DNA from: a virus
Taxonomy: Duplodnaviria > Heunggongvirae > Uroviricota > Caudoviricetes
DNA length: 48,174 nt
Strand: one strand, 5' to 3'
IMG/VR virus record: IMGVR_UViG_2711768016_000013
In this document: piece after piece, positions 1,553-48,174 of the stretch
Layout of the letters: each line of letters begins with the position of its first letter
How positions within the stretch are numbered: position 1 is the stretch's first letter
Notes under the pieces: model-generated
Databases searched by the model: none
What the model was told of the DNA's origin: nothing
What the model saw: only the letters and a program-made list of their open reading frames with translations
Program-made: the position numbers and the translations under genes

Positions 1553-1813
1553 TCACGAGGACTGAAGTTTCTCGCAATTAAAATTTATCAGTTTTACTTT
1601 CTGCTCTCTGGAAACGCCTGCTTCTTTTTTACCTGAGAGCATTTTTTCGCATTCTGATTTCGTTAGTTTAGATTTTGAATATCTTGTCCAGTTAGTAGGA
1701 GTGCCACCTTCCTTTTCAATAGTGGCGGTAATTTTATACATGAACACCTCCATTATTATTTCCAGTGGTTCGTTTATTTCATCGTTCGAGTGCTTCTTTT
1801 TCACTTCCACCAT
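1553..1813 (-). CDS. ydaC: Small hypothetical early protein (YdaC-like); start uncertain
   Basis: 86-aa ORF between xis and recT; several in-frame Met candidates (MEVFMYK...); overlaps the 3' end of the ralR frame. Confidence 0.5.
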   Translation of the reverse strand: MVEVKKKHSNDEINEPLEIIMEVFMYKITATIEKEGGTPTNWTRYSKSKLTKSECEKMLSGKKEAGVSREQKVKLINFNCEKLQSS

Positions 1814-6670: not shown

Positions 6671-7159
6671 ATGTTGGATGTATTTACTCCATTGTTGAAA
6701 CTTTTTGCTAACGAGCCACTCGAAATACTTATGTATACGATTATCATTTTTGGTCTCACTCTCTGGCTGATACCGAAAGAGTTTACTGTCGCATTCAATG
6801 CTTATACTGAAATACCTTGGCTCTTTCAGATTATCGTTTTTGCCTTTTCTTTCGTGGTCGCCATTTCCTTCTCAAGATTGCGAGCACATATTCAAAAGCA
6901 TTATTCATTACTACCAGAGCAACGAGTATTGCTTCGTTTATCTGAGAAAGAAATCGCTGTATTTAAAGATTTCCTTAAAACAGGAAATCTTATTATCACT
7001 TCTCCTTGCCGTAACCCGGTTATGAAAAAATTAGAACGGAAGGGCATCATTCAACATCAGAGTGATAGCGCAAACTGTTCTTATTATCTCGTCACCGAAA
7101 AATACTCCCATTTTATGAAGTTATTCTGGAACAGCAGGAGTAGACGTTTTAATCGTTAG
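6671..7159 (+). CDS. sieB: Superinfection exclusion protein B, membrane protein, 162 aa
   Basis: MLDVFTPLLKLFANEPLEILMYTIIIFGLTLWLIPKEF... with hydrophobic helices; ATG at 6671 within the longer ORF. Confidence 0.85.
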   Translation: MLDVFTPLLKLFANEPLEILMYTIIIFGLTLWLIPKEFTVAFNAYTEIPWLFQIIVFAFSFVVAISFSRLRAHIQKHYSLLPEQRVLLRLSEKEIAVFKDFLKTGNLIITSPCRNPVMKKLERKGIIQHQSDSANCSYYLVTEKYSHFMKLFWNSRSRRFNR

Positions 7160-7311
7160 CTTACTGTGTGCTTCTCCAACCATCGGCGCGCACCAGTTTC
7201 GGTTTTAAATGTTTTGCTTTTGGTATACGTCATGGCAGTGAACGTTCCATCCTGGTTGGGGAACACGCCGCACACCAGGGATTCGTTGTTGCCGAGGTCG
7301 ATTTTTTGCAT
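7156..7311 (-). CDS. ydaF: Small protein YdaF-like, 51 aa
   Basis: Hand translation MQKIDLGNNESLVCGVFPNQDGTFTAMTYTKSKTFKTETGARRWLEKHTVS; below cutoff. Confidence 0.65.
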   Translation of the reverse strand: MQKIDLGNNESLVCGVFPNQDGTFTAMTYTKSKTFKTETGARRWLEKHTVS

Positions 7312-7321
7312 TTTGCGAATC

Positions 7322-7456
7322 TCACATCTTGTTGCTGTGTATAGCGACTTCTGCCTGCCAGAGATCCCAGTCGTTGCTGCGTAAAGCCTGCACAGCCTGG
7401 TTGTAAGTGATACCGCAACAATCCATCAAATACTGAACTACTTCGTAATGCACCAT
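7322..7456 (-). CDS. ydaG: Small protein YdaG-like, 44 aa
   Basis: MVHYEVVQYLMDCCGITYNQAVQALRSNDWDLWQAEVAIHSNKM from ATG at 7456. Confidence 0.65.
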   Translation of the reverse strand: MVHYEVVQYLMDCCGITYNQAVQALRSNDWDLWQAEVAIHSNKM

Positions 7457-7626
7457 CTTATCTCTCCCCTTAACGCCGGGTGGCGGAACTGAAACCTGCT
7501 GCACTGCAAAATCTGAACCCTGCCGTCATGTTCATACGCCTCGGGCTGGCTACTTAACCCCTGACCACTGCCTGGTAACTCGAAGTATTGCCCTGCGTTC
7601 TGTGGGGCGGGGTGGGTTGGTAGGTA

Positions 7627-7670
7627 TATAATGTACTTTGTGTTCATTGATGTAAAGTACTATAAGTACA
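7627..7670. promoter_or_regulatory. Candidate leftward promoter/operator (OL-like) with GTAC-core inverted repeats downstream of the repressor gene
   Basis: GTACTTT (7633-7639) and AAAGTAC (7654-7660) form an inverted repeat; further AAGTAC copy at 7665-7669; TATAAT-like hexamers nearby. Confidence 0.35.
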
Positions 7671-7746
7671 TTTTGTGTGTAAAAAAATGAGATGGGATAA
7701 AGTGAAGCACAAACCCGGAGGGGGACGCTACCGGATTTATGCTGGT

Positions 7747-8184
7747 TTAAGAGGCTTTTTGTTTTTTCTTTCGTGCTAGCTCTTCGTAAATTGCATTGTA
7801 CTTCTGTTTTTTCTCCTCAAGAGTTTTTAAAAGTTCATCTGTCTCACTGTCAGGGAGCTCGTCCAGAAGGTCAATGATGATTTTTTGTCTTGGATTTAAC
7901 TCCTGATAGAAACGTACCTGTCCACTTTCTTCTGTATCCTCTCCCAAAAGATAGGTTGGTGTTGTTCCAATGAGTGTTGCTAATTCCCTTAATTTCTCTC
8001 GGCGAGGAATTGTTTCGCCATTAAACCATTTGCTAACCGCTTTTGGTGTTAATTTCATTCGACGGGCAATTTCTGCCTGCCTTCCATGTTGTTCATAACC
8101 AGCGTTTTCACAGGCTAGCGCAAGCCTACTGGCGAACTCTTTACGCGCTTTATCTTCATGAACCATAAGTTCAATGATATTCAC
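7747..8184 (-). CDS. racR: Prophage repressor, XRE-family HTH (RacR-like)
   Basis: HTH segment GRQAEIARRMKLTPKAVSKWFNG; divergent from ydaS/ydaT as in CI/Cro arrangements. Confidence 0.85.
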   Translation of the reverse strand: MNIIELMVHEDKARKEFASRLALACENAGYEQHGRQAEIARRMKLTPKAVSKWFNGETIPRREKLRELATLIGTTPTYLLGEDTEESGQVRFYQELNPRQKIIIDLLDELPDSETDELLKTLEEKKQKYNAIYEELARKKKQKAS

Positions 8185-8245
8185 TCTTGAATGTACTGTC
8201 AGTTCTGTTATAGCATGTACTCAAAGTTCACATTGTGAGGGTGAT
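8185..8245. promoter_or_regulatory. Divergent promoter/operator region between racR and ydaS (OR-like)
   Basis: 61-bp intergenic region with two direct ATGTACT copies (8191-8197, 8214-8220) sharing the GTAC core seen on the other side of racR. Confidence 0.4.
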
Positions 8246-8500
8246 ATGAACCAGAAAACACTTGAAGATGTAATCAAAACTGTTCGCGTTTCTGTTGTGG
8301 CCGACGTTTGTGGTGTCAGCCAAAGAGCAATCTACAAATGGATGGATAACGGAAAATTGCCTCGCACAGAATATACCGGCGAAACAAATTACGCTGAAAA
8401 AATCGCTCATGCATCAAACGGATTATTTTCTGCTGATGTAATTTTAACTATTGGCAGAAATAAAACTACTACGAAAAAGCTGATGGGAGTTGATTCATGA
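8246..8500 (+). CDS. ydaS: Cro-like small HTH protein (YdaS-like)
   Basis: ATG at 8246 preceded by GAGGG; VSQRAIYKWMDNG HTH-like segment; overlaps ydaT start. Confidence 0.7.
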   Translation: MNQKTLEDVIKTVRVSVVADVCGVSQRAIYKWMDNGKLPRTEYTGETNYAEKIAHASNGLFSADVILTIGRNKTTTKKLMGVDS

Positions 8501-8919
8501 AAATCAAGCATGAGCACATCGAGTCAGTGTTGTTAGCCCTGGCAGCCGAAAAAGGGCAGGCATGGGTAGCCAATGCCATTACTGAAGAATATCTGCGCCA
8601 GGGGGGCGGCGAATTGCCCCTGGTACCAGGCAAGGACTGGAATAATCAGCAGAATATCTATCACCGTTGGTTGAAAGGTGAAACGAAAACGCAAAGAGAA
8701 AAAATTCAGAAGCTGATCCCAGCAATTCTGGCAATCCTTCCGCGCGAGCTGCGTCACCGACTCTGCATCTTCGATACCCTGGAACGCCGTGCATTACTGG
8801 CGGCGCAGGAAGCGTTAAGTACGGCAATTGATGCGCATGATGATGCAGTCCAAGCCGTTTACCGGAAAGCGCATTTCAGCGGCGGCGGGTCTTCCGACGA
8901 TTCTGTCATTGTTCATTAA
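8497..8919 (+). CDS. ydaT: YdaT-like protein, 140 aa
   Basis: MKIKHEHIESVLLALAAEKGQAWV...; coupled to ydaS (ATGA overlap). Confidence 0.8.
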   Translation: MKIKHEHIESVLLALAAEKGQAWVANAITEEYLRQGGGELPLVPGKDWNNQQNIYHRWLKGETKTQREKIQKLIPAILAILPRELRHRLCIFDTLERRALLAAQEALSTAIDAHDDAVQAVYRKAHFSGGGSSDDSVIVH

Positions 8920-8931
8920 GCAAAAGTTTCC

Positions 8932-9789
8932 ATGCTGTTTGTGCTTATTCTAAGCCACCGGGCAGCATCATACGGGGCAATTATGGCCGCATTACCATAC
9001 ATGCAACTGTACATAGCTGATTACCTGGCTGACACCATGCATTTGTCAGCAGAGGAGCATGGTGCGTATTTGTTGCTGATGTTCAATTACTGGCAAACAG
9101 GAAAGCCAATACCTAAAAACAGGCTGGCAAAAATTGCCCGTCTGACTAACGAGCGATGGGCTGATGTTGAACCATCCTTGCAGGAGTTTTTTTGCGATAA
9201 CGGCGAGGAATGGGTGCATCTTCGGATTGAGGAAGATCTGGCATCAGTCAGGGAAAAATTAACCAAAAAATCAGCCGCAGGAAAAGCATCTGTTCAGGCC
9301 AGAAGAAGCAGAAAGGAAGCAGATGTTCAAACAAAACAAGAGAGAAATTTAACAGGTGTTCAAACAGATGTTGAAGTGGTGTTTGAACATGATGTCAACA
9401 CAAAGGCAACTAATAAAGATACAGATAAAGATCTAAAAACAGATCCCCCCCTAAATCCCCCCCGGGGGAATCGAGGTGTCAAAAAGTTTGACCCTCTGGA
9501 TATTGCTTTGCCGAACTGGATTTCTGTCTCGCTTTGGCGTGAGTGGGTTGAATTTCGCCAGGCATTGCGAAAACCGATTCGAACGGAGCAGGGCGCTAAC
9601 GGGGCGATACGGGAGCTGGAAAAATTCCGCCAGCAGGGTTTTTCACCTGAGCAGGTGATTCGACACAGCATCGCCAATGAATACCAGGGCTTGTTCGCGC
9701 CGAAAGGTGTTCGACCTGAGACGTTACTCCGACAGGTTAACACCGTCTCGTTACCGGATAGTGCGATCCCGCCAGGCTTCAGGGGGTAA
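8932..9789 (+). CDS. ydaU: Replication initiation protein (YdaU-like, lambda O analogue)
   Basis: 285-aa ORF immediately upstream of the DnaC-like gene; family assignment from memory. Confidence 0.75.
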   Translation: MLFVLILSHRAASYGAIMAALPYMQLYIADYLADTMHLSAEEHGAYLLLMFNYWQTGKPIPKNRLAKIARLTNERWADVEPSLQEFFCDNGEEWVHLRIEEDLASVREKLTKKSAAGKASVQARRSRKEADVQTKQERNLTGVQTDVEVVFEHDVNTKATNKDTDKDLKTDPPLNPPRGNRGVKKFDPLDIALPNWISVSLWREWVEFRQALRKPIRTEQGANGAIRELEKFRQQGFSPEQVIRHSIANEYQGLFAPKGVRPETLLRQVNTVSLPDSAIPPGFRG

Positions 9790-11341: not shown

Positions 11342-11758
11342 ATGGCAAAAGTTTTTACACAGGAAGAGCGTGAAAAAATTAAGGAGCAGGTTGTTGAGTT
11401 GGTACGCCAGAGTGGGCGCGAGACGTTAAGGCAACTGGAGGCCAAGACAGGTGCGACAAGATATCTGATGAGCATTCTTGCCAGAGAGTTGGTTGCCAGT
11501 GGCGATGTATACAACTCTGGCTATGGGTTATTCCCGTCTGAACAGGCTCGTAAGGATTGGAAAAACGCCCGCAAAAAACTATCCAGGGCAAAGGTGAAAA
11601 AAACGGTTGTGGTTGATCCTGACCTTATCTGGTCATTACCAGACGGAGAAATACGCCGCTATGACAGGCGTCAGAACATAATCTGTCGCGAGTGCCGGAA
11701 GAGTGAAGTTATGAAACGTGTACTGGCATTTTATCAAGGAAATCTTCGGTATTTATAG
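11342..11758 (+). CDS. Hypothetical phage protein
   Basis: ATG at 11342 with GGAGG 5 nt upstream; basic C-terminal half. Confidence 0.55.
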   Translation: MAKVFTQEEREKIKEQVVELVRQSGRETLRQLEAKTGATRYLMSILARELVASGDVYNSGYGLFPSEQARKDWKNARKKLSRAKVKKTVVVDPDLIWSLPDGEIRRYDRRQNIICRECRKSEVMKRVLAFYQGNLRYL

Positions 11759-11914
11759 ACGTTACTAGATCAAAGAGCATTAGTTCATATGTAAATTGAC
11801 ATTTTTCTGGCACAGGGGAGAGCTAGCGTGGTTGTCCGCTTTGTGCCAATAGCGGACATTGCTGGCTCATGGTATGTTAGTTTAAGGAGGCAGGTTATGC
11901 CCTGTATTTCGCTG

Positions 11915-11923
11915 TGGTATAAT
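11915..11923 (+). promoter_or_regulatory. Extended -10 promoter element (TGgTATAAT) upstream of the accessory operon
   Basis: TG at 11915-11916 and TATAAT at 11918-11923, about 34 nt upstream of the GTG at 11957. Confidence 0.4.
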
Positions 11924-11956
11924 AGTTGCGCAATTGATACAAGGGAGCGTTACATC

Positions 11957-12919
11957 GTGAAAATTGTTTTCGAGGTTAATGGAAAGAAAGTTCCACTAAA
12001 ATCTTTAAAATACATAAGCAAAAAAGATCAACTCGAAGTAATGAAAAACTGGTTCTTTGAAAACTTTGAAGATCCGGCAAATGCTTGTCCGTATGAAAGT
12101 AGAGAAGGTGGCTATGCTTACATATATGGCGGGCCGTATGATGCGAGCGAAGAACTACAATCCATCTTCGGTCAATATGTTAAATCTGAGTATATTGAGG
12201 AATTAGTAGATGAATTACAAACACAATGTTTTGACTGGTCTGGAAACTCAAATAATATAGATGATTGGTACGATGATGATATCTACGACGCTGTAACGTC
12301 TTCCGGTAATCCGTATTTAAAATTCATTGATAATATCGATAAAATAAAAAAACTTGCAAAAGATAAAACTGAACAACAGCAAAAAAACCACTTGCTTAGT
12401 TTGCTCTACACGAATGTTATTACAGCTTTGGAAACGCTTTATGTTGAGCTATTCATTAATTCTATAGAGAAAGATGATGTCTACATAGCCAATTGTATAG
12501 AAAAAGGTAAGACTGAATTTAAAGTAAGCAAAGATATTGCTGCGTTGCCTTTCAAGGGTGAACCCATCGAGAAAATTAGGGGAGAGCTAATCAGGTCAAT
12601 CAAGGAACACTTGATCAGTGCAAGCTGGCATAGCACTAAAAAGGTAATCGACCGCTATGAAGCTACATTCGATATAAAAGTACAAAAAGACTGTCCGATA
12701 GAAGCTATTGAATTGGCAACCCTCAATCGAAATCACTTAGTGCATCGTGGTGGAAAGGATAAAGAAGGGAACCTCGTAGTGATTACAGACCAGGATCTTG
12801 AAACGCTGATTGAAAATGCATCGAACCTGGCAATTATGCTCTACAACAGTTTAAATGTAGCAACGAATAAAACCACCATTTTGCAACCAGATGACAAACC
12901 GTTCATTCATGAATTTTAA
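11957..12919 (+). CDS. Uncharacterized protein with C-terminal Rx4H (HEPN-like) motif; first gene of AT-rich accessory operon
   Basis: Start uncertain (GTG 11957 with AGGGAG 9 nt upstream; longest ORF starts 11828); LNRNHLVHRGG at codons 299-309 follows predicted helices; low GC. Confidence 0.6.
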   Translation: MKIVFEVNGKKVPLKSLKYISKKDQLEVMKNWFFENFEDPANACPYESREGGYAYIYGGPYDASEELQSIFGQYVKSEYIEELVDELQTQCFDWSGNSNNIDDWYDDDIYDAVTSSGNPYLKFIDNIDKIKKLAKDKTEQQQKNHLLSLLYTNVITALETLYVELFINSIEKDDVYIANCIEKGKTEFKVSKDIAALPFKGEPIEKIRGELIRSIKEHLISASWHSTKKVIDRYEATFDIKVQKDCPIEAIELATLNRNHLVHRGGKDKEGNLVVITDQDLETLIENASNLAIMLYNSLNVATNKTTILQPDDKPFIHEF

Positions 12920-12934
12920 TAGCGCAGGTCATAC

Positions 12935-13936
12935 ATGGATATTCGCACACGAAAGACAAAATTTTTAGAGTCGTTAGATTCAACTGAAGTGATACGCAAA
13001 GCAGTAAGTCTCGCTATAGATTGCATTATTGATAATCATAATAGTAATGAAGATACCCCCTTAGTTATTACCAGCTATGATGATCTCTGTAGAATCCAGG
13101 TGCTAAATTATGTACAGGAGTTTTGCGAAGCTGCATTCCCTGATATGGATGAATATTACTTTAGTCCTAACATACTTCGCATCAACGGCAAGACTAGTGA
13201 AGAAGCTTGTATTAACTTAATTAAACTCTTAAGAAGTACAAAAGGCATGCTATTCTGGTCCGATGCCCCATCGTGGTTCGCTAGCCTCCCCGACGGATTA
13301 TTCCATGTTGTTAACATTGATCAAAAAATCGTTACTCGCGGCCTTAATAAGAAAAACTCTAAGCCGACAATAATCAATAAAGATTACAGTGTAGATACAC
13401 TACTATCAGAGCTATTTTTGAATGGCGCACACATGGAGCAACCCAACGTACACAACGTTTCTGAGGGAAACATGAAGTTCTATGATGAATGCCATGCTGG
13501 ATTAATCAGACCAATACCCGCTCCAATAGGCGCGTCATACGATGAAGAGATCACAATTAATTCTCCAGATTGGCAAAAGCTCGCGTGTGTAGCTTTACGC
13601 CGCTATCAGTCGAAGGAATGTCATGACGGAATGCAATGGGATACAACCGATCATGGTTGGACTGATGTAATCGCGTATCCATTCGTCGAAGAAATACAAT
13701 CAATGGATAATAGTGGTTATCGACAATGTTTAGTTGGGCTGGTCACAATAAACAATTCAAATGCAAATTCTCCGTACCTATCTACCGTTTGGATACATCC
13801 ATTTTATCGCAGGAGAGGGTTATTAAGTAAGTTATGGCCAAAATTACAAGAGTTATATGGAAGTAACTTCGAAATTGAGCGACCTAATGAAAATATGAAA
13901 GCATTTCTGAAAAGTGCGAAACACGCAGATTACTAA
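12935..13936 (+). CDS. Uncharacterized 333-aa protein with C-terminal GNAT-like motif; second gene of accessory operon
   Basis: ATG 15 nt after upstream stop; VWIHPFYRRRGLLSKLW resembles GNAT acetyl-CoA-binding motif A. Confidence 0.65.
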   Translation: MDIRTRKTKFLESLDSTEVIRKAVSLAIDCIIDNHNSNEDTPLVITSYDDLCRIQVLNYVQEFCEAAFPDMDEYYFSPNILRINGKTSEEACINLIKLLRSTKGMLFWSDAPSWFASLPDGLFHVVNIDQKIVTRGLNKKNSKPTIINKDYSVDTLLSELFLNGAHMEQPNVHNVSEGNMKFYDECHAGLIRPIPAPIGASYDEEITINSPDWQKLACVALRRYQSKECHDGMQWDTTDHGWTDVIAYPFVEEIQSMDNSGYRQCLVGLVTINNSNANSPYLSTVWIHPFYRRRGLLSKLWPKLQELYGSNFEIERPNENMKAFLKSAKHADY

Positions 13937-14113
13937 TTTATGAATCAGTCTGTGGAGTTAGGGTTGGTGTGAACAAGTAGGGTAAGAGCCTCAACGTGAT
14001 GCTATGCCGACCTGCTCCCTGAGAATTCACACAGAAGGCTGCTAGCAATGTCTGCAGATCGCTCAAAGCGGACTAAAATGTTGGCTTGTTTCTGACTTAG
14101 AGCATTTAAGGAA

Positions 14114-14338
14114 GTGCTGGTGGTGACTGGTTGTTGTGTTCCATTTCTACAGAATAAAATCACAGAAACTATACCCAATAGTTGTATTGAATCACTGACG
14201 AGACAGCCTCATATTTATCAGGACTGGTGTGCGTCTAATACAGGGGGTTGTCGTGCTGGTTCTCAAATGTGCGCTGGCTATTGCGGCTGTAATGGCAATT
14301 TATTGTCTTGCTGTTGTTCTTATGGAGCGGCTTTCTGA
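14114..14338 (+). CDS. Possible small Cys-rich peptide (9 Cys in the last 35 residues); weak call
   Basis: GTG-initiated ORF; C-terminus CRAGSQMCAGYCGCNGNLLSCCCSYGAAF; no convincing RBS. Confidence 0.2.
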   Translation: MLVVTGCCVPFLQNKITETIPNSCIESLTRQPHIYQDWCASNTGGCRAGSQMCAGYCGCNGNLLSCCCSYGAAF

Positions 14339-14556: not shown

Positions 14557-14895
14557 CTATTTTTTGGTGCTATAGACTTTTTCGCCCGAAAAGTCTGGAG
14601 CGACCCAAAAGTTAATATTAAACTGAGCATCATCGCTTAGTTCAACACGGTGCCAGTATTGTGGTGGGCTTGTTGCAAAAGCGCCAGCATTAATGACTAC
14701 TTTTATCTCCGGTTCAGTAGCATTCTCATCAGTAAAACCATAATATGTTACAGTGCCTTCCATTACGCACAACTGCCCAAAAACACCTGCTGCTGTATTA
14801 TGATGTGTTAATAACGCTGAAGGTACGTTCTCTTTTGTGAAGAACGGAGTTGAGCGTTTGATTACCCAATCTTTAGGAATTCTCTTGTGTGTCAT
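14557..14895 (-). CDS. Hypothetical protein, possibly cupin-like (DUF1971-like); accessory gene on opposite strand
   Basis: ATG at 14895 with GGAGGAGG 7 nt upstream; MTHKRIPKDWVIKRSTPFFTKENVPSALL...; fold assignment tentative. Confidence 0.55.
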   Translation of the reverse strand: MTHKRIPKDWVIKRSTPFFTKENVPSALLTHHNTAAGVFGQLCVMEGTVTYYGFTDENATEPEIKVVINAGAFATSPPQYWHRVELSDDAQFNINFWVAPDFSGEKVYSTKK

Positions 14896-15708
14896 AACCA
14901 CCTCCTCCAAAACATGCATTAAAAATGCATCTTTTGGAGGGTTATGTCAAGCTGTTATGAAACACATAATTGATATGTTGATTAGAGGAGAAGATAGAAT
15001 AAATATGGTTGTTTTTCGTATAACTATTTGTTTTACTTTTAGTTTATGCATTCTGTGTGTTAGGAATAAGTTATTAAAGTTTAATCAAAAAATCTCGATG
15101 TAGTCCACATAGATTACTGTTACTGAACCTTATTGTGTGTATTAGTTGTGTTCTGAAATTTCAGCTTAATTATTTATGATGTATTTTTTAACGATAAATA
15201 TTTTCCCAGGATACCTTTACTGTGTATATAAATAAATTATATACGCATAAATAATGTAAAGGCGTCCTTTTAGATATATCTTATCAAATGTTAATGACTT
15301 GAGTGGGAAATATGATTCCAGCAACTTATCATGTGGCTACTTTATAAAAATAATGCCCATATAAAACAACAAGCGAAAAGGATTACGGATAAAAAAGGAG
15401 CGAGATGTGCGAACTTGTTATTTTCCATGTTTAACCACCTTAAATAATTGATGATGACGGGATGATTGCATCTGTAATGCTTTTATTGAAATGTTATGAT
15501 AAAAAAGAACTTTTGCATAACATTAAAATGTAATTTATCTAATCGTTTTTAATAATAAGTGTCGTATTTCTATCCTTGTACCAGCTATTTGATATGTAGT
15601 GTTTGTTCATGCTATGTGGGGCTTTACACCATAGCCAGTTTATTTATACTTTATTCGTCAGCCTGAACAACTGGCATCTGCTGCGCTGCGCCATCGAGAG
15701 ATTGAGAA

Positions 15709-17590: not shown

Positions 17591-18181
17591 GGGCTGGTTT
17601 ATTGTATGCCAAATGATTATTAAAAAGGTTGTGTTAATAACAAGATCCGAAATAATATGCCTGCATATTTTTATCTTGCTTATATTCTGCATATTGTGCA
17701 TAGCAGGCTCATCCCTGCAATCAAAACTGTATGATGAGTATTTTTTGTTTTCCTTTTTTCCAGTCATCTGATGATGACCTGCTTCTTTTTAATCCGGATC
17801 GACATCAGTTTTTTAAGATAATTCCTGCGAGTTATATGCATAAATGCCACAAACTCCGCATTTTATGTGGTTGGGAGTTGCCGGGCGCGCAGTGAGTTTG
17901 CTAAGAAAACTCCTGCATGGTGAATCCCCCTGTGCGGTGGGGTGATACCATTAACCTTTTCTGTCGCCGACAGGTATCACGAACATTTTGTTCACCGGGA
18001 GGCACCCGGCACCATGCACTTCAATAGATTCTCTCCACATTATGGATATTCTTTCAGAATATCCCACGCAGACTTTGTGTAAATGTTAACAAATGTGCGT
18101 TTTATTTGATCTGATTCGCTGTTTGAGCGTCCAAAACAACGGTATATATAATCCTTTACTATATGACATATGTGAGGAAAA

Positions 18182-47543: not shown

Positions 47544-48174
47544 TGGCATTCAGAATGAGTGAACAACCACGGACCATAAAAATTTATAATCTGCTGGCCG
47601 GAACTAATGAATTTATTGGTGAAGGTGATGCATATATTCCGCCTCATACAGGTCTGCCANNNNNNNNNNNNNNNNNNNNNNNNNNNNNNNNNNNNNNNNN
47701 NNNNNNNNNNNNNNNNNNNNNNNNNNNNNNNNNNNNNNNNNNNNNNNNNNNNNNNNNNNNNNNNNNNNNNNNNNNNNNNNNNNNNNNNNNNNNNNNNNNN
47801 NNNNNNNNNNNNNNNNNNNNNNNNNNNNNNNNNNNNNNNNNNNNNNNNNNNNNNNNNNNNNNNNNNNNNNNNNNNNNNNNNNNNNNNNNNNNNNNNNNNN
47901 NNNNNNNNNNNNNNNNNNNNNNNNCCCCGGAGGGGGGCATTTCATTATTTTTCTAATCGTTACTGGTGAGAAGGCGGAAGAAACAAAAAACAACCTGATG
48001 CAGGTAGCCAGTGAGCATATTGCGCCGCTTCAGGATGCTGCAGATCTGGAAATTGCAACGGAGGAAGAAATCTCGTTGCTGGAAGCATGGAAAAAGTATC
48101 GGGTATTGCTGAACCGTGTTGATACGTCAACTGCACCTGATATTGAGTGGCCTACGAACCCTGTCAGGGAGTAA
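47543..48174 (+). CDS. tfaR: Tail fiber assembly protein (Tfa-like), interrupted by an N-run gap
   Basis: Starts by ATGA overlap with stf stop; C-terminal reading after the gap ends at TAA 48172-48174; gap length breaks the frame. Confidence 0.55.
47660..47924. other. Assembly gap (265 N)
   Basis: Run of n characters in the sequence. Confidence 1.

Follow-up and report, generated by a model that had tools for sequence, protein, structure and literature searches.

Within a 48,174-nucleotide (nt) stretch of DNA filed in IMG/VR as the virus IMGVR_UViG_2711768016_000013, hereafter the window, two plus-strand open reading frames (ORFs) lie close together: gene A at 11828-12919 in its longest reading (363 amino acids, aa) and gene B at 12935-13936 (333 aa). 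A preliminary description made from the letters of the window had picked out these tightly linked genes with their 15-nt gap, which are present as stated there, and had presented them as a candidate undescribed accessory system. The pair has already been described: it is the anti-phage system DS-33 of the DefensePredictor study, which appeared as a preprint in January 2025 (10.1101/2025.01.08.631726) and in Science in 2026 (PMC13092281). The identification follows from the 320/320 identity of window A to the DS-33A sequence printed in Table S8 (PMC13092281), from the 332/333 identity of window B to DS-33B (WP_000354965.1), with residue 289 as the sole difference, and from a shared layout with the same 15-nt gap. 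The explanation that best accounts for the evidence, and that we hold with good confidence, is that DS-33 occupies a variable slot of a Rac-type prophage, with A as the defence protein and B as an accessory. The features of the locus are as follows.

11833-14075, plus strand: mobile cassette common to other taxa (blastn)
11915-11923, plus strand: candidate extended -10 promoter element of the cassette, TGGTATAAT, read from the sequence, with predicted promoter function
11941-11947, plus strand: Shine-Dalgarno sequence AAGGGAG of gene A, 9 nt upstream of the GTG (AAGGAG in Aeromonas)
11957-12919, plus strand: gene A, DS-33A (WP_014639476.1), 320 aa, HEPN effector; 320/320 identity, RefSeq start, conserved start
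11957-12310, plus strand: N-terminal domain of A (residues ~1-118), PF18870 type, 'HEPN/RES N-terminal domain 1', a candidate sensor or regulatory module
12311-12880, plus strand: HEPN domain of A (residues ~119-308), RiboL-PSP-HEPN type
12728-12745, plus strand: catalytic R-x4-H motif RNHLVH (R258...H263); invariant residues, published R258A mutant
12920-12934, plus strand: A-B spacer, TAGCGCAGGTCATAC, 15 nt, read from the sequence
12935-13936, plus strand: gene B, DS-33B family (WP_000354966.1 in RefSeq), 333 aa; 332/333 identity to the tested DS-33B
12935-13549, plus strand: N-terminal ~205 residues of B, family-specific domain with no Pfam match in 44 of 44 members
13550-13933, plus strand: predicted GNAT-fold domain of B (residues ~206-333)
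13799-13801, plus strand: codon 289 of B (CCA, Pro; Leu in the allele tested by experiment), the single point at which the two alleles differ

Published phage challenge of DS-33

In the DefensePredictor tables DS-33 comprises WP_014639476.1 and WP_000354965.1 at NZ_QOWT01000046.1 6922-8901, is marked validated and carries the nickname 'GNAT'; its gene coordinates, 6922-7884 and 7900-8901, give the same 15-nt gap as in the window (PMC13092281). The system is classed there as a 'predicted novel defense gene' and not as a remote homolog, with defence scores of 9.45 for A and 1.08 for B (PMC13092281). Its data are found in Tables S6-S8; the protein accessions stand only in the supplementary tables, not in the main text of the papers, and the main text gives DS-33 neither discussion nor mechanism (PMC13092281). 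Our literature search found no later work on DS-33, nor any on HEPN-GNAT pairs.

Carried under its native promoter by a low-copy plasmid in E. coli MG1655 and challenged with 24 phages, DS-33 (with the L289 allele of B) cuts the plating of T7, T3, Bas67 and Bas26 by ~2-6 log (PMC13092281, Table S7). Protection fell to 0-0.5 log when the HEPN gene was deleted and to 0-0.8 log in the R258A mutant, in two replicate sets each, and amounted to 3.3-5 log against the same four phages when the GNAT gene was deleted (PMC13092281, Table S7). B alone, that is, the HEPN-deleted construct with the L289 allele, gave no protection against five phages (PMC13092281). A is thus necessary and, in the published assay, sufficient for defence, since its deletion or the R258A change abolishes protection and deletion of B does not. 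The preliminary description had proposed an anti-phage defence cassette carried as accessory prophage cargo, and the published protection bears this out.

These experiments also bear on a rival explanation that we regard as improbable, namely that A and B form a toxin-antitoxin (TA)-like pair in which B would neutralise the HEPN ribonuclease (RNase) by acetylating A or the target of A, comparable to AMPylation by MNT proteins, with infection relieving the inhibition. Such a role for B would agree with the finding that the GNAT-deleted construct matches the wild type in defence or exceeds it by up to 1.7 log (PMC13092281), a difference (0 to 1.7 log) of about the resolution limit of ten-fold spot dilutions. 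That same construct, however, is viable and defends normally (PMC13092281), so A is not lethal without B, and the source strain, with its P289L allele of B, also tolerates A.

Gene A and its HEPN domain

By sequence alone the only Pfam signal in window A is PF18870, at 22.2 bits and under the gathering cut-off of 27.4 bits; PF18735 (RiboL-PSP-HEPN; gathering cut-off 28.4 bits) gives no match at E-values up to 1. Relatives of A score 28.7-30.4 bits for PF18870, and the PF18735 cut-off is exceeded by the homologs P0101, at 36.1 bits, and P0061, at 28.5 bits. The A family comprises 122 clusters, many of whose members are annotated with both PF18870 and PF18735, and A itself has the all-alpha HEPN helical fold and an R-x4-6-H motif. 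The HEPN-like Rx4H motif noticed in the preliminary description is genuine: in an alignment of 51 family members reaching down to 26% identity, R258, H263 and R264 of RNHLVHR are invariant, as is E159. The most conserved block of the family is the N-terminal domain. Elsewhere the PF18870 domain is fused to a PIN_8 nuclease (locus L075) or to S1 plus RNase E/G (locus L070), and in alphaproteobacteria a PF18870-type domain is joined to unassigned C-termini. Gene A encodes a self-contained HEPN defence protein, whose RNase activity is predicted by analogy, with indirect support from the loss of defence in the published R258A mutant.

The profile searches that had been recommended for both proteins thus yielded sub-threshold hits to PF18870 for A and PF00583 for B, and scans of the two with PADLOC (2023) and NCBIfam gave nothing significant. 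Profile searches of Protein Data Bank (PDB) sequences found no relatives of either family, and RefSeq labels both products hypothetical. The earlier statement that neither product represents a standard lambdoid function agrees with these results.

Start site and expression signals of gene A

Three starts are possible for A: GTG 11828 (363 aa), ATG 11897 (340 aa, the form in PHROG 17908) and GTG 11957 (320 aa, the RefSeq form). We chose between them by aligning the upstream regions of the E. coli, Serratia and Aeromonas copies. The extended -10 element, the Shine-Dalgarno sequence and GTG 11957 are all kept from E. coli to Aeromonas, whereas GTG 11828, ATG 11897 and the ribosome-binding site of ATG 11897 are not conserved; homologs of A in other taxa begin at the position of GTG 11957. 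Because of this conservation of the signals around GTG 11957, and the lack of it at the upstream ATG, the true start of A is GTG 11957, with a product of 320 aa. The 363-aa and 340-aa readings are ruled out on the conservation of promoter, Shine-Dalgarno sequence and GTG 11957. Of the lengths first suggested, ~321-363 aa for A and 333 aa for B, the former is accordingly corrected to 320 aa and the latter stands.

The candidate -10 element occurs as TGaTAcAAT or TGgTAcAAT in the Aeromonas, Serratia and Enterobacter copies. A scan with consensus promoters and terminators showed no enrichment over shuffled sequences and missed the extended -10 owing to a weak -35, and an Rfam scan found no RNA family within the A-B pair. 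An inverted repeat, GTCCGC-N12-GCGGAC, lies at 11833-11856, at the left edge of the cassette homology, and is kept in Serratia and Enterobacter and partly in Mangrovibacter.

Gene B, a predicted GNAT-fold acyltransferase

The AlphaFold2 (AF2) model of B has a predicted local distance difference test score (pLDDT) of 90, and fold comparison finds the GNAT fold in it, with the protein acetyltransferases HAT1, ESCO1, MYST and ATAT as the closest structural matches. PF00583 scores 19.9 bits in window B, below the cut-off of 20.7 bits, and 27.0 and 26.2 bits in the homologs P0164 and P0166; it is matched by 35 of 44 family members at E-values up to 1. The GNAT-like motif first reported for gene B is substantiated by the fold. 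The N-terminal ~205 residues occur only in B-type proteins, in 21 clusters, in a phmmer search of 1.84 billion representative proteins. A further protein, P0196 (570 aa), contains ten repeated stretches matching B residues 160-200, and may be a repeat protein with a shared short motif. Judged from the model, gene B would encode a GNAT-fold acyltransferase with a family-specific N-terminal domain.

The region expected to bind coenzyme A (CoA), R292-R-R-G295-L-L, lacks the final G/A of the motif Q/R-x-x-G-x-G/A that follows strand 4; G295 is substituted in several homologs, and H288, P289 and R292 are invariant. Translation-blocking GNAT toxins are an established class, and the GNAT fold of B raises the alternative that B is a second effector, a TacT/AtaT-type toxin acetylating aminoacyl-tRNA and halting translation jointly with the HEPN RNase. 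We consider this very unlikely. At 333 aa B is twice the size of such toxins and carries a unique N-terminal domain, no small antitoxin or partner ORF adjoins it, and its family does not keep the glycine of the CoA-binding motif; moreover, B is not needed for defence and alone gives none (PMC13092281).

Codon 289 and the tested allele of gene B

Window B carries the common Pro289 and the tested clone Leu289; in all other respects the two pairs, both from E. coli, are the same system. Pro289 directly precedes the R292-x-x-G CoA-binding loop and is invariant, both in the 44 aligned B homologs (44/44) and in the family representatives carrying the motif (62/62). Among 5426 complete E. coli genomes, a 43-nt probe detects the Pro allele in 209, and no genome matches its single-step Leu (CTA) version. 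The tested DS-33B is a rare and possibly impaired variant (P289L), and it is to this allele that the published dispensability of B applies.

Distribution, transfer and loss of the two genes

Gene neighbourhoods were sampled at 80 A loci and ~15 B loci. Species genomes of GTDB contain 181 loci that encode an A relative, from Proteobacteria to Acidobacteriota, Chloroflexota and Cyanobacteria; among the loci kept, 55 had a full-length A relative, and 40 of these 55 had enough flank to be assessed. B was present at one of the 40, and a tightly linked ORF stood beside A downstream in five and upstream in seven. Clustering of all neighbours in the 80 loci revealed no recurrent partner of A, and the comparative data agree with A being self-sufficient. 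That A relatives are solitary in ~30 of the 40 assessable loci tells against a TA-like pair.

Within E. coli the picture is one of strict linkage: A occurs in 209 and B in 209 of the 5426 complete genomes, UTI89 and ATCC 11775 among them, and the two are never apart. The pair of Aeromonas caviae (loci L086-L089, ~7200-9300) shows 86% nucleotide identity, the same gene order and, from the gene coordinates, the same 15-nt spacing; its surroundings, a relaxase-bearing element with neighbouring SIR2 and cREC_REC genes, suggest that a mobilisable element carries a small defence island here. By blastn, the stretch matched by the Aeromonas copies is window 11898-13978 (86% identity), and B-only derivatives in Enterobacteriaceae align from ~11833 out to ~14010-14075. 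The A-B cassette moves as a unit: its host element is a Rac prophage in E. coli and a relaxase-bearing one in Aeromonas. The tight 15-nt linkage, the 209/209 co-occurrence and the joint transfer to Aeromonas are all features that a TA-like pair would show.

Several copies are damaged or rearranged, and IS elements cluster around the pair. NZ_OZ546967 lacks the 5' half of A, and an IS1 lies inside B in SF-173; at loci L097 and L098 (E. coli O78 strain 3 and MB56), one strain has IS2 upstream of A, and in MB56 two ISSen4 copies bracket A and alter the 5' end of B. A 3.3-kb contig labelled as a metagenome-assembled genome of Collinsella sp. (L002) encodes an A 100% identical to that of E. coli followed by a B gene, and is most likely a mis-binned E. 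coli contig.

Close solo-B genes (86-91% identity) arose from the pair by deletion, with three different junctions, in Mangrovibacter, Enterobacter and a Citrobacter-type island. The upstream region of A is joined to its last 13 codons in Mangrovibacter and to its last ~20 codons in Enterobacter, and only codons 257-320 of A are left in the Citrobacter-type island; all three loci retain the identical 15-nt A-B spacer. Three independent deletions of A have thus left B, which persists as an intact frame of 333 codons with a ratio of nonsynonymous to synonymous substitution rates (dN/dS) of 0.26-0.46. A, where present, is under strong purifying selection (dN/dS 0.06-0.16). Repeated loss of A with retention of an intact B is the pattern expected if a toxin is dispensable and its antidote is not, and in this respect the TA-like explanation gains.

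More distant B genes stand without a HEPN gene nearby in Neptunicella, on a Serratia conjugative element and downstream of polA, which speaks against a TA-like pair, and two others adjoin Abi_2 genes. Abi_2 is placed in the HEPN superfamily. In Marinomonas the B-family gene is divergent from an Abi_2 gene whose product weakly matches two HEPN models; in Shewanella vesiculosa it lies on the same strand as Abi_2 in a defence-type island. The Shewanella gene is located downstream of Abi_2 and a 102-aa ORF, with RVT_1 and DUF4062 genes nearby (L104/L105, 1-5996). This adjacency to other HEPN-type genes, together with the resemblance of B to HAT1, ESCO1, MYST and ATAT, is what a nuclease-directed acetyltransferase in a TA-like pair would lead one to expect. 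A strict TA interpretation is nevertheless weakened by the viable B deletion and the many solitary A genes, although it may still hold for the P289 allele. The notion of a defence pair first put forward therefore holds as regards defence, and fails as regards an obligate two-gene or toxin-antitoxin unit, because the B deletion is viable and defends, A is mostly solitary and B persists without A.

The same distribution can be read another way, as independent neighbouring cargo, with A a one-gene defence and B having a role of its own (against other phages, in counter-defence or in small-molecule modification). This we consider somewhat unlikely, if a more serious contender than a TA-like pair. 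Each gene is widespread without the other, B also occurs in conjugative and integrative elements and stays intact after loss of A (dN/dS as above), and its defence score is low beside that of A (PMC13092281). The deletion derivatives are of the same tenor: those of Enterobacter place B downstream of the conserved -10 element of A, and that of Mangrovibacter retains only sequence upstream of this element. Independence accords poorly, on the other hand, with an order and a 15-nt spacing that E. coli and Aeromonas share although their nucleotide identity is only 86%, with the constant company of A and B in E. coli, with the presence of B near HEPN-type genes in three different configurations, and with the lack of protection by B alone against any of five phages, though there with the L289 allele (PMC13092281).

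Prophage setting and accessory slot

The element carrying the pair is a Rac-type prophage. RalA, the antitoxin small RNA (sRNA) of RalR and a Rac marker, is matched above threshold by Rfam at window 1557-1735, and strain FORC_081 holds a 100% identical copy of window 11700-14100 (2.4 kb) at ttcA, with intR, xisR, recET, kilR and sieB; the RalA match and the ttcA/intR/recET context of the identical copy support this assignment. Above-threshold Rfam matches in the window also include STnc100 and IS009, the three Rfam sites being 1557-1735, 17885-18071 and 47954-48131. The pair is absent from the phage genome collection, where short matches were restricted to the DUF977 end.

Upstream of the pair lie replication-module genes (DUF1376/YdaU-like, a DnaC-like ATPase, DUF1627 and DUF977), and downstream comes more AT-rich DNA, which includes a DUF1971 gene on the minus strand, and then DUF1367, DUF1364 and DUF1133. 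The genes had been placed between the replication module and a nin/Q module, which fits the DUF977 side upstream and the DUF1367/DUF1364/DUF1133 side downstream. Their AT-richness relative to the flanks is likewise confirmed, with a G+C content (GC) of 0.34-0.41 in the pair versus 0.50-0.55 in the upstream replication genes; the DUF1367/DUF1364/DUF1133 genes have 0.49-0.53.

The slot directly after the DUF977 gene varies among related prophages, as the preliminary description had advised checking: it holds QueH plus hokD, an alpha/beta hydrolase or unrelated hypotheticals, and in another Rac variant, E. coli KKa019 (locus L102, 5141-8534), the annotated anti-phage pair IteA/IteS between the same DUF977/DUF1367 flanks. 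The DUF977-DUF1367 interval is a hotspot of variable content, in agreement with the statement in the HepS paper that lambdoid prophages place accessory genes after their replication genes (PMC13043305).

Two further features lie to the right of gene B. The DUF1971 (TehB N-terminal-like) gene at 14557-14919 on the minus strand and, beyond it, ~700 nt at 14900-15600 with a GC of only 27-31% and no long ORF form a separate AT-rich insert, outside the cassette common to other taxa. A 74-aa ORF at 14114-14338 on the plus strand has a very cysteine-rich C-terminal half (...CASNTGGCRAGSQMCAGYCGCNGNLLSCCCSYGAAF), matches no Pfam family and lacks a RefSeq annotation; it may be a chance ORF or encode a small secreted peptide.

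Comparison with known defence systems

The closest likeness in way of life is to HepS of the Salmonella prophage Gifsy-1, a HEPN nuclease that defends alone, with no obligate partner, and is encoded in a lambdoid prophage, in the accessory slot that follows the replication genes (PMC13043305). HepS acts by abortive infection, is triggered by the tail tip protein J, and has known tRNA targets and a catalytic H105 (PMC13043305). It is, however, a minimal HEPN protein with homologues under 250 aa, whereas A has 320 aa with an added PF18870-type N-terminal domain and acts on T7/T3-type phages; on size and architecture we rejected the identity of A with HepS.

HEPN/MNT type VII TA systems (e.g. PDB 5yep, 7ae2, 8xdj) differ in that the partner of A has a GNAT fold and no nucleotidyltransferase match, A has an extra N-terminal domain, and B is not needed for cell viability. 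PD-T4-2, from an E. coli pangenome screen, includes a RiboL-PSP-HEPN protein (PD-T4-2_B) of the same broad HEPN subfamily as A, and a remote profile match between the two has been reported (probability 96.1 over 55% of A; PMC13092281); membership of A or B in that system was rejected, no PADLOC model for PD-T4-2 matching either at E-values up to 1. Abi_2 proteins (AbiD/AbiF type) resemble A as single-gene abortive-infection or defence proteins, and adjoin B-family genes as noted above, but A has no PF07751 match and its N-terminal domain is of PF18870 type.

Proposed mechanism and the role of gene B

Beyond the need for R258, the most likely mechanism of A is proposed by analogy with other HEPN defences. 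Expressed constitutively from its own extended -10 promoter, A would stay inactive until T7/T3-like or certain other phages infect the cell and switch it on, probably via the N-terminal domain; active A would then cut cellular and/or phage RNA, so that translation stops and no phage progeny are released, in the style of abortive infection.

B is accessory, and the data fit a modulator of HEPN-type nucleases and independent cargo about equally. That B is a non-essential modulator which tunes or restrains HEPN-type effectors, and not a core component, is a tentative proposal to which we give somewhat less than even weight. Decidedly less probable is the wider idea that the B family consists of dedicated acetyltransferase partners of HEPN-type abortive-infection RNases, a HEPN-GNAT counterpart of HEPN-MNT in which acetylation would restrain the nuclease or give the prophage immunity; the published test of B would have missed such a partnership, because in the tested allele P289L alters a residue that is invariant in the CoA-binding region.

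Four points weigh against our interpretation of DS-33 as a HEPN defence gene with an accessory neighbour. Window A itself falls under the PF18870 cut-off and has no PF18735 match, and its HEPN membership comes by way of homologs and fold. We infer its RNase activity, its trigger, the role of its N-terminal domain and abortive infection, and DS-33 is absent from the text of the paper (PMC13092281). The tested B allele may be defective, in which case the published test neither proves nor excludes a role of the normal allele. Finally, the role proposed for B is weak, the difference of 0 to 1.7 log between wild type and B deletion being near the resolution of the spot assay.

Significance

As DS-33 was already published and validated, the discovery value of the locus is small; what this analysis adds is the rarity of P289L, the presence of B-family genes near Abi_2 in two other lineages, and the recognition of the slot as a hotspot. 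The remaining value lies in the mechanism of DS-33 and in the allele caveat for B, which has been tested for function only as a rare allele with an invariant residue changed. DS-33 occurs in ~4% of the complete E. coli genomes, with UTI89 and ATCC 11775 (the type strain) among them, so that pathogenic lineages carry it as a common but uncharacterised defence. From the repeated loss of the nuclease gene beside a retained acetyltransferase gene, and from the nearness of the latter to other HEPN-type genes, comes a concrete, testable hypothesis on how such nucleases may be restrained.

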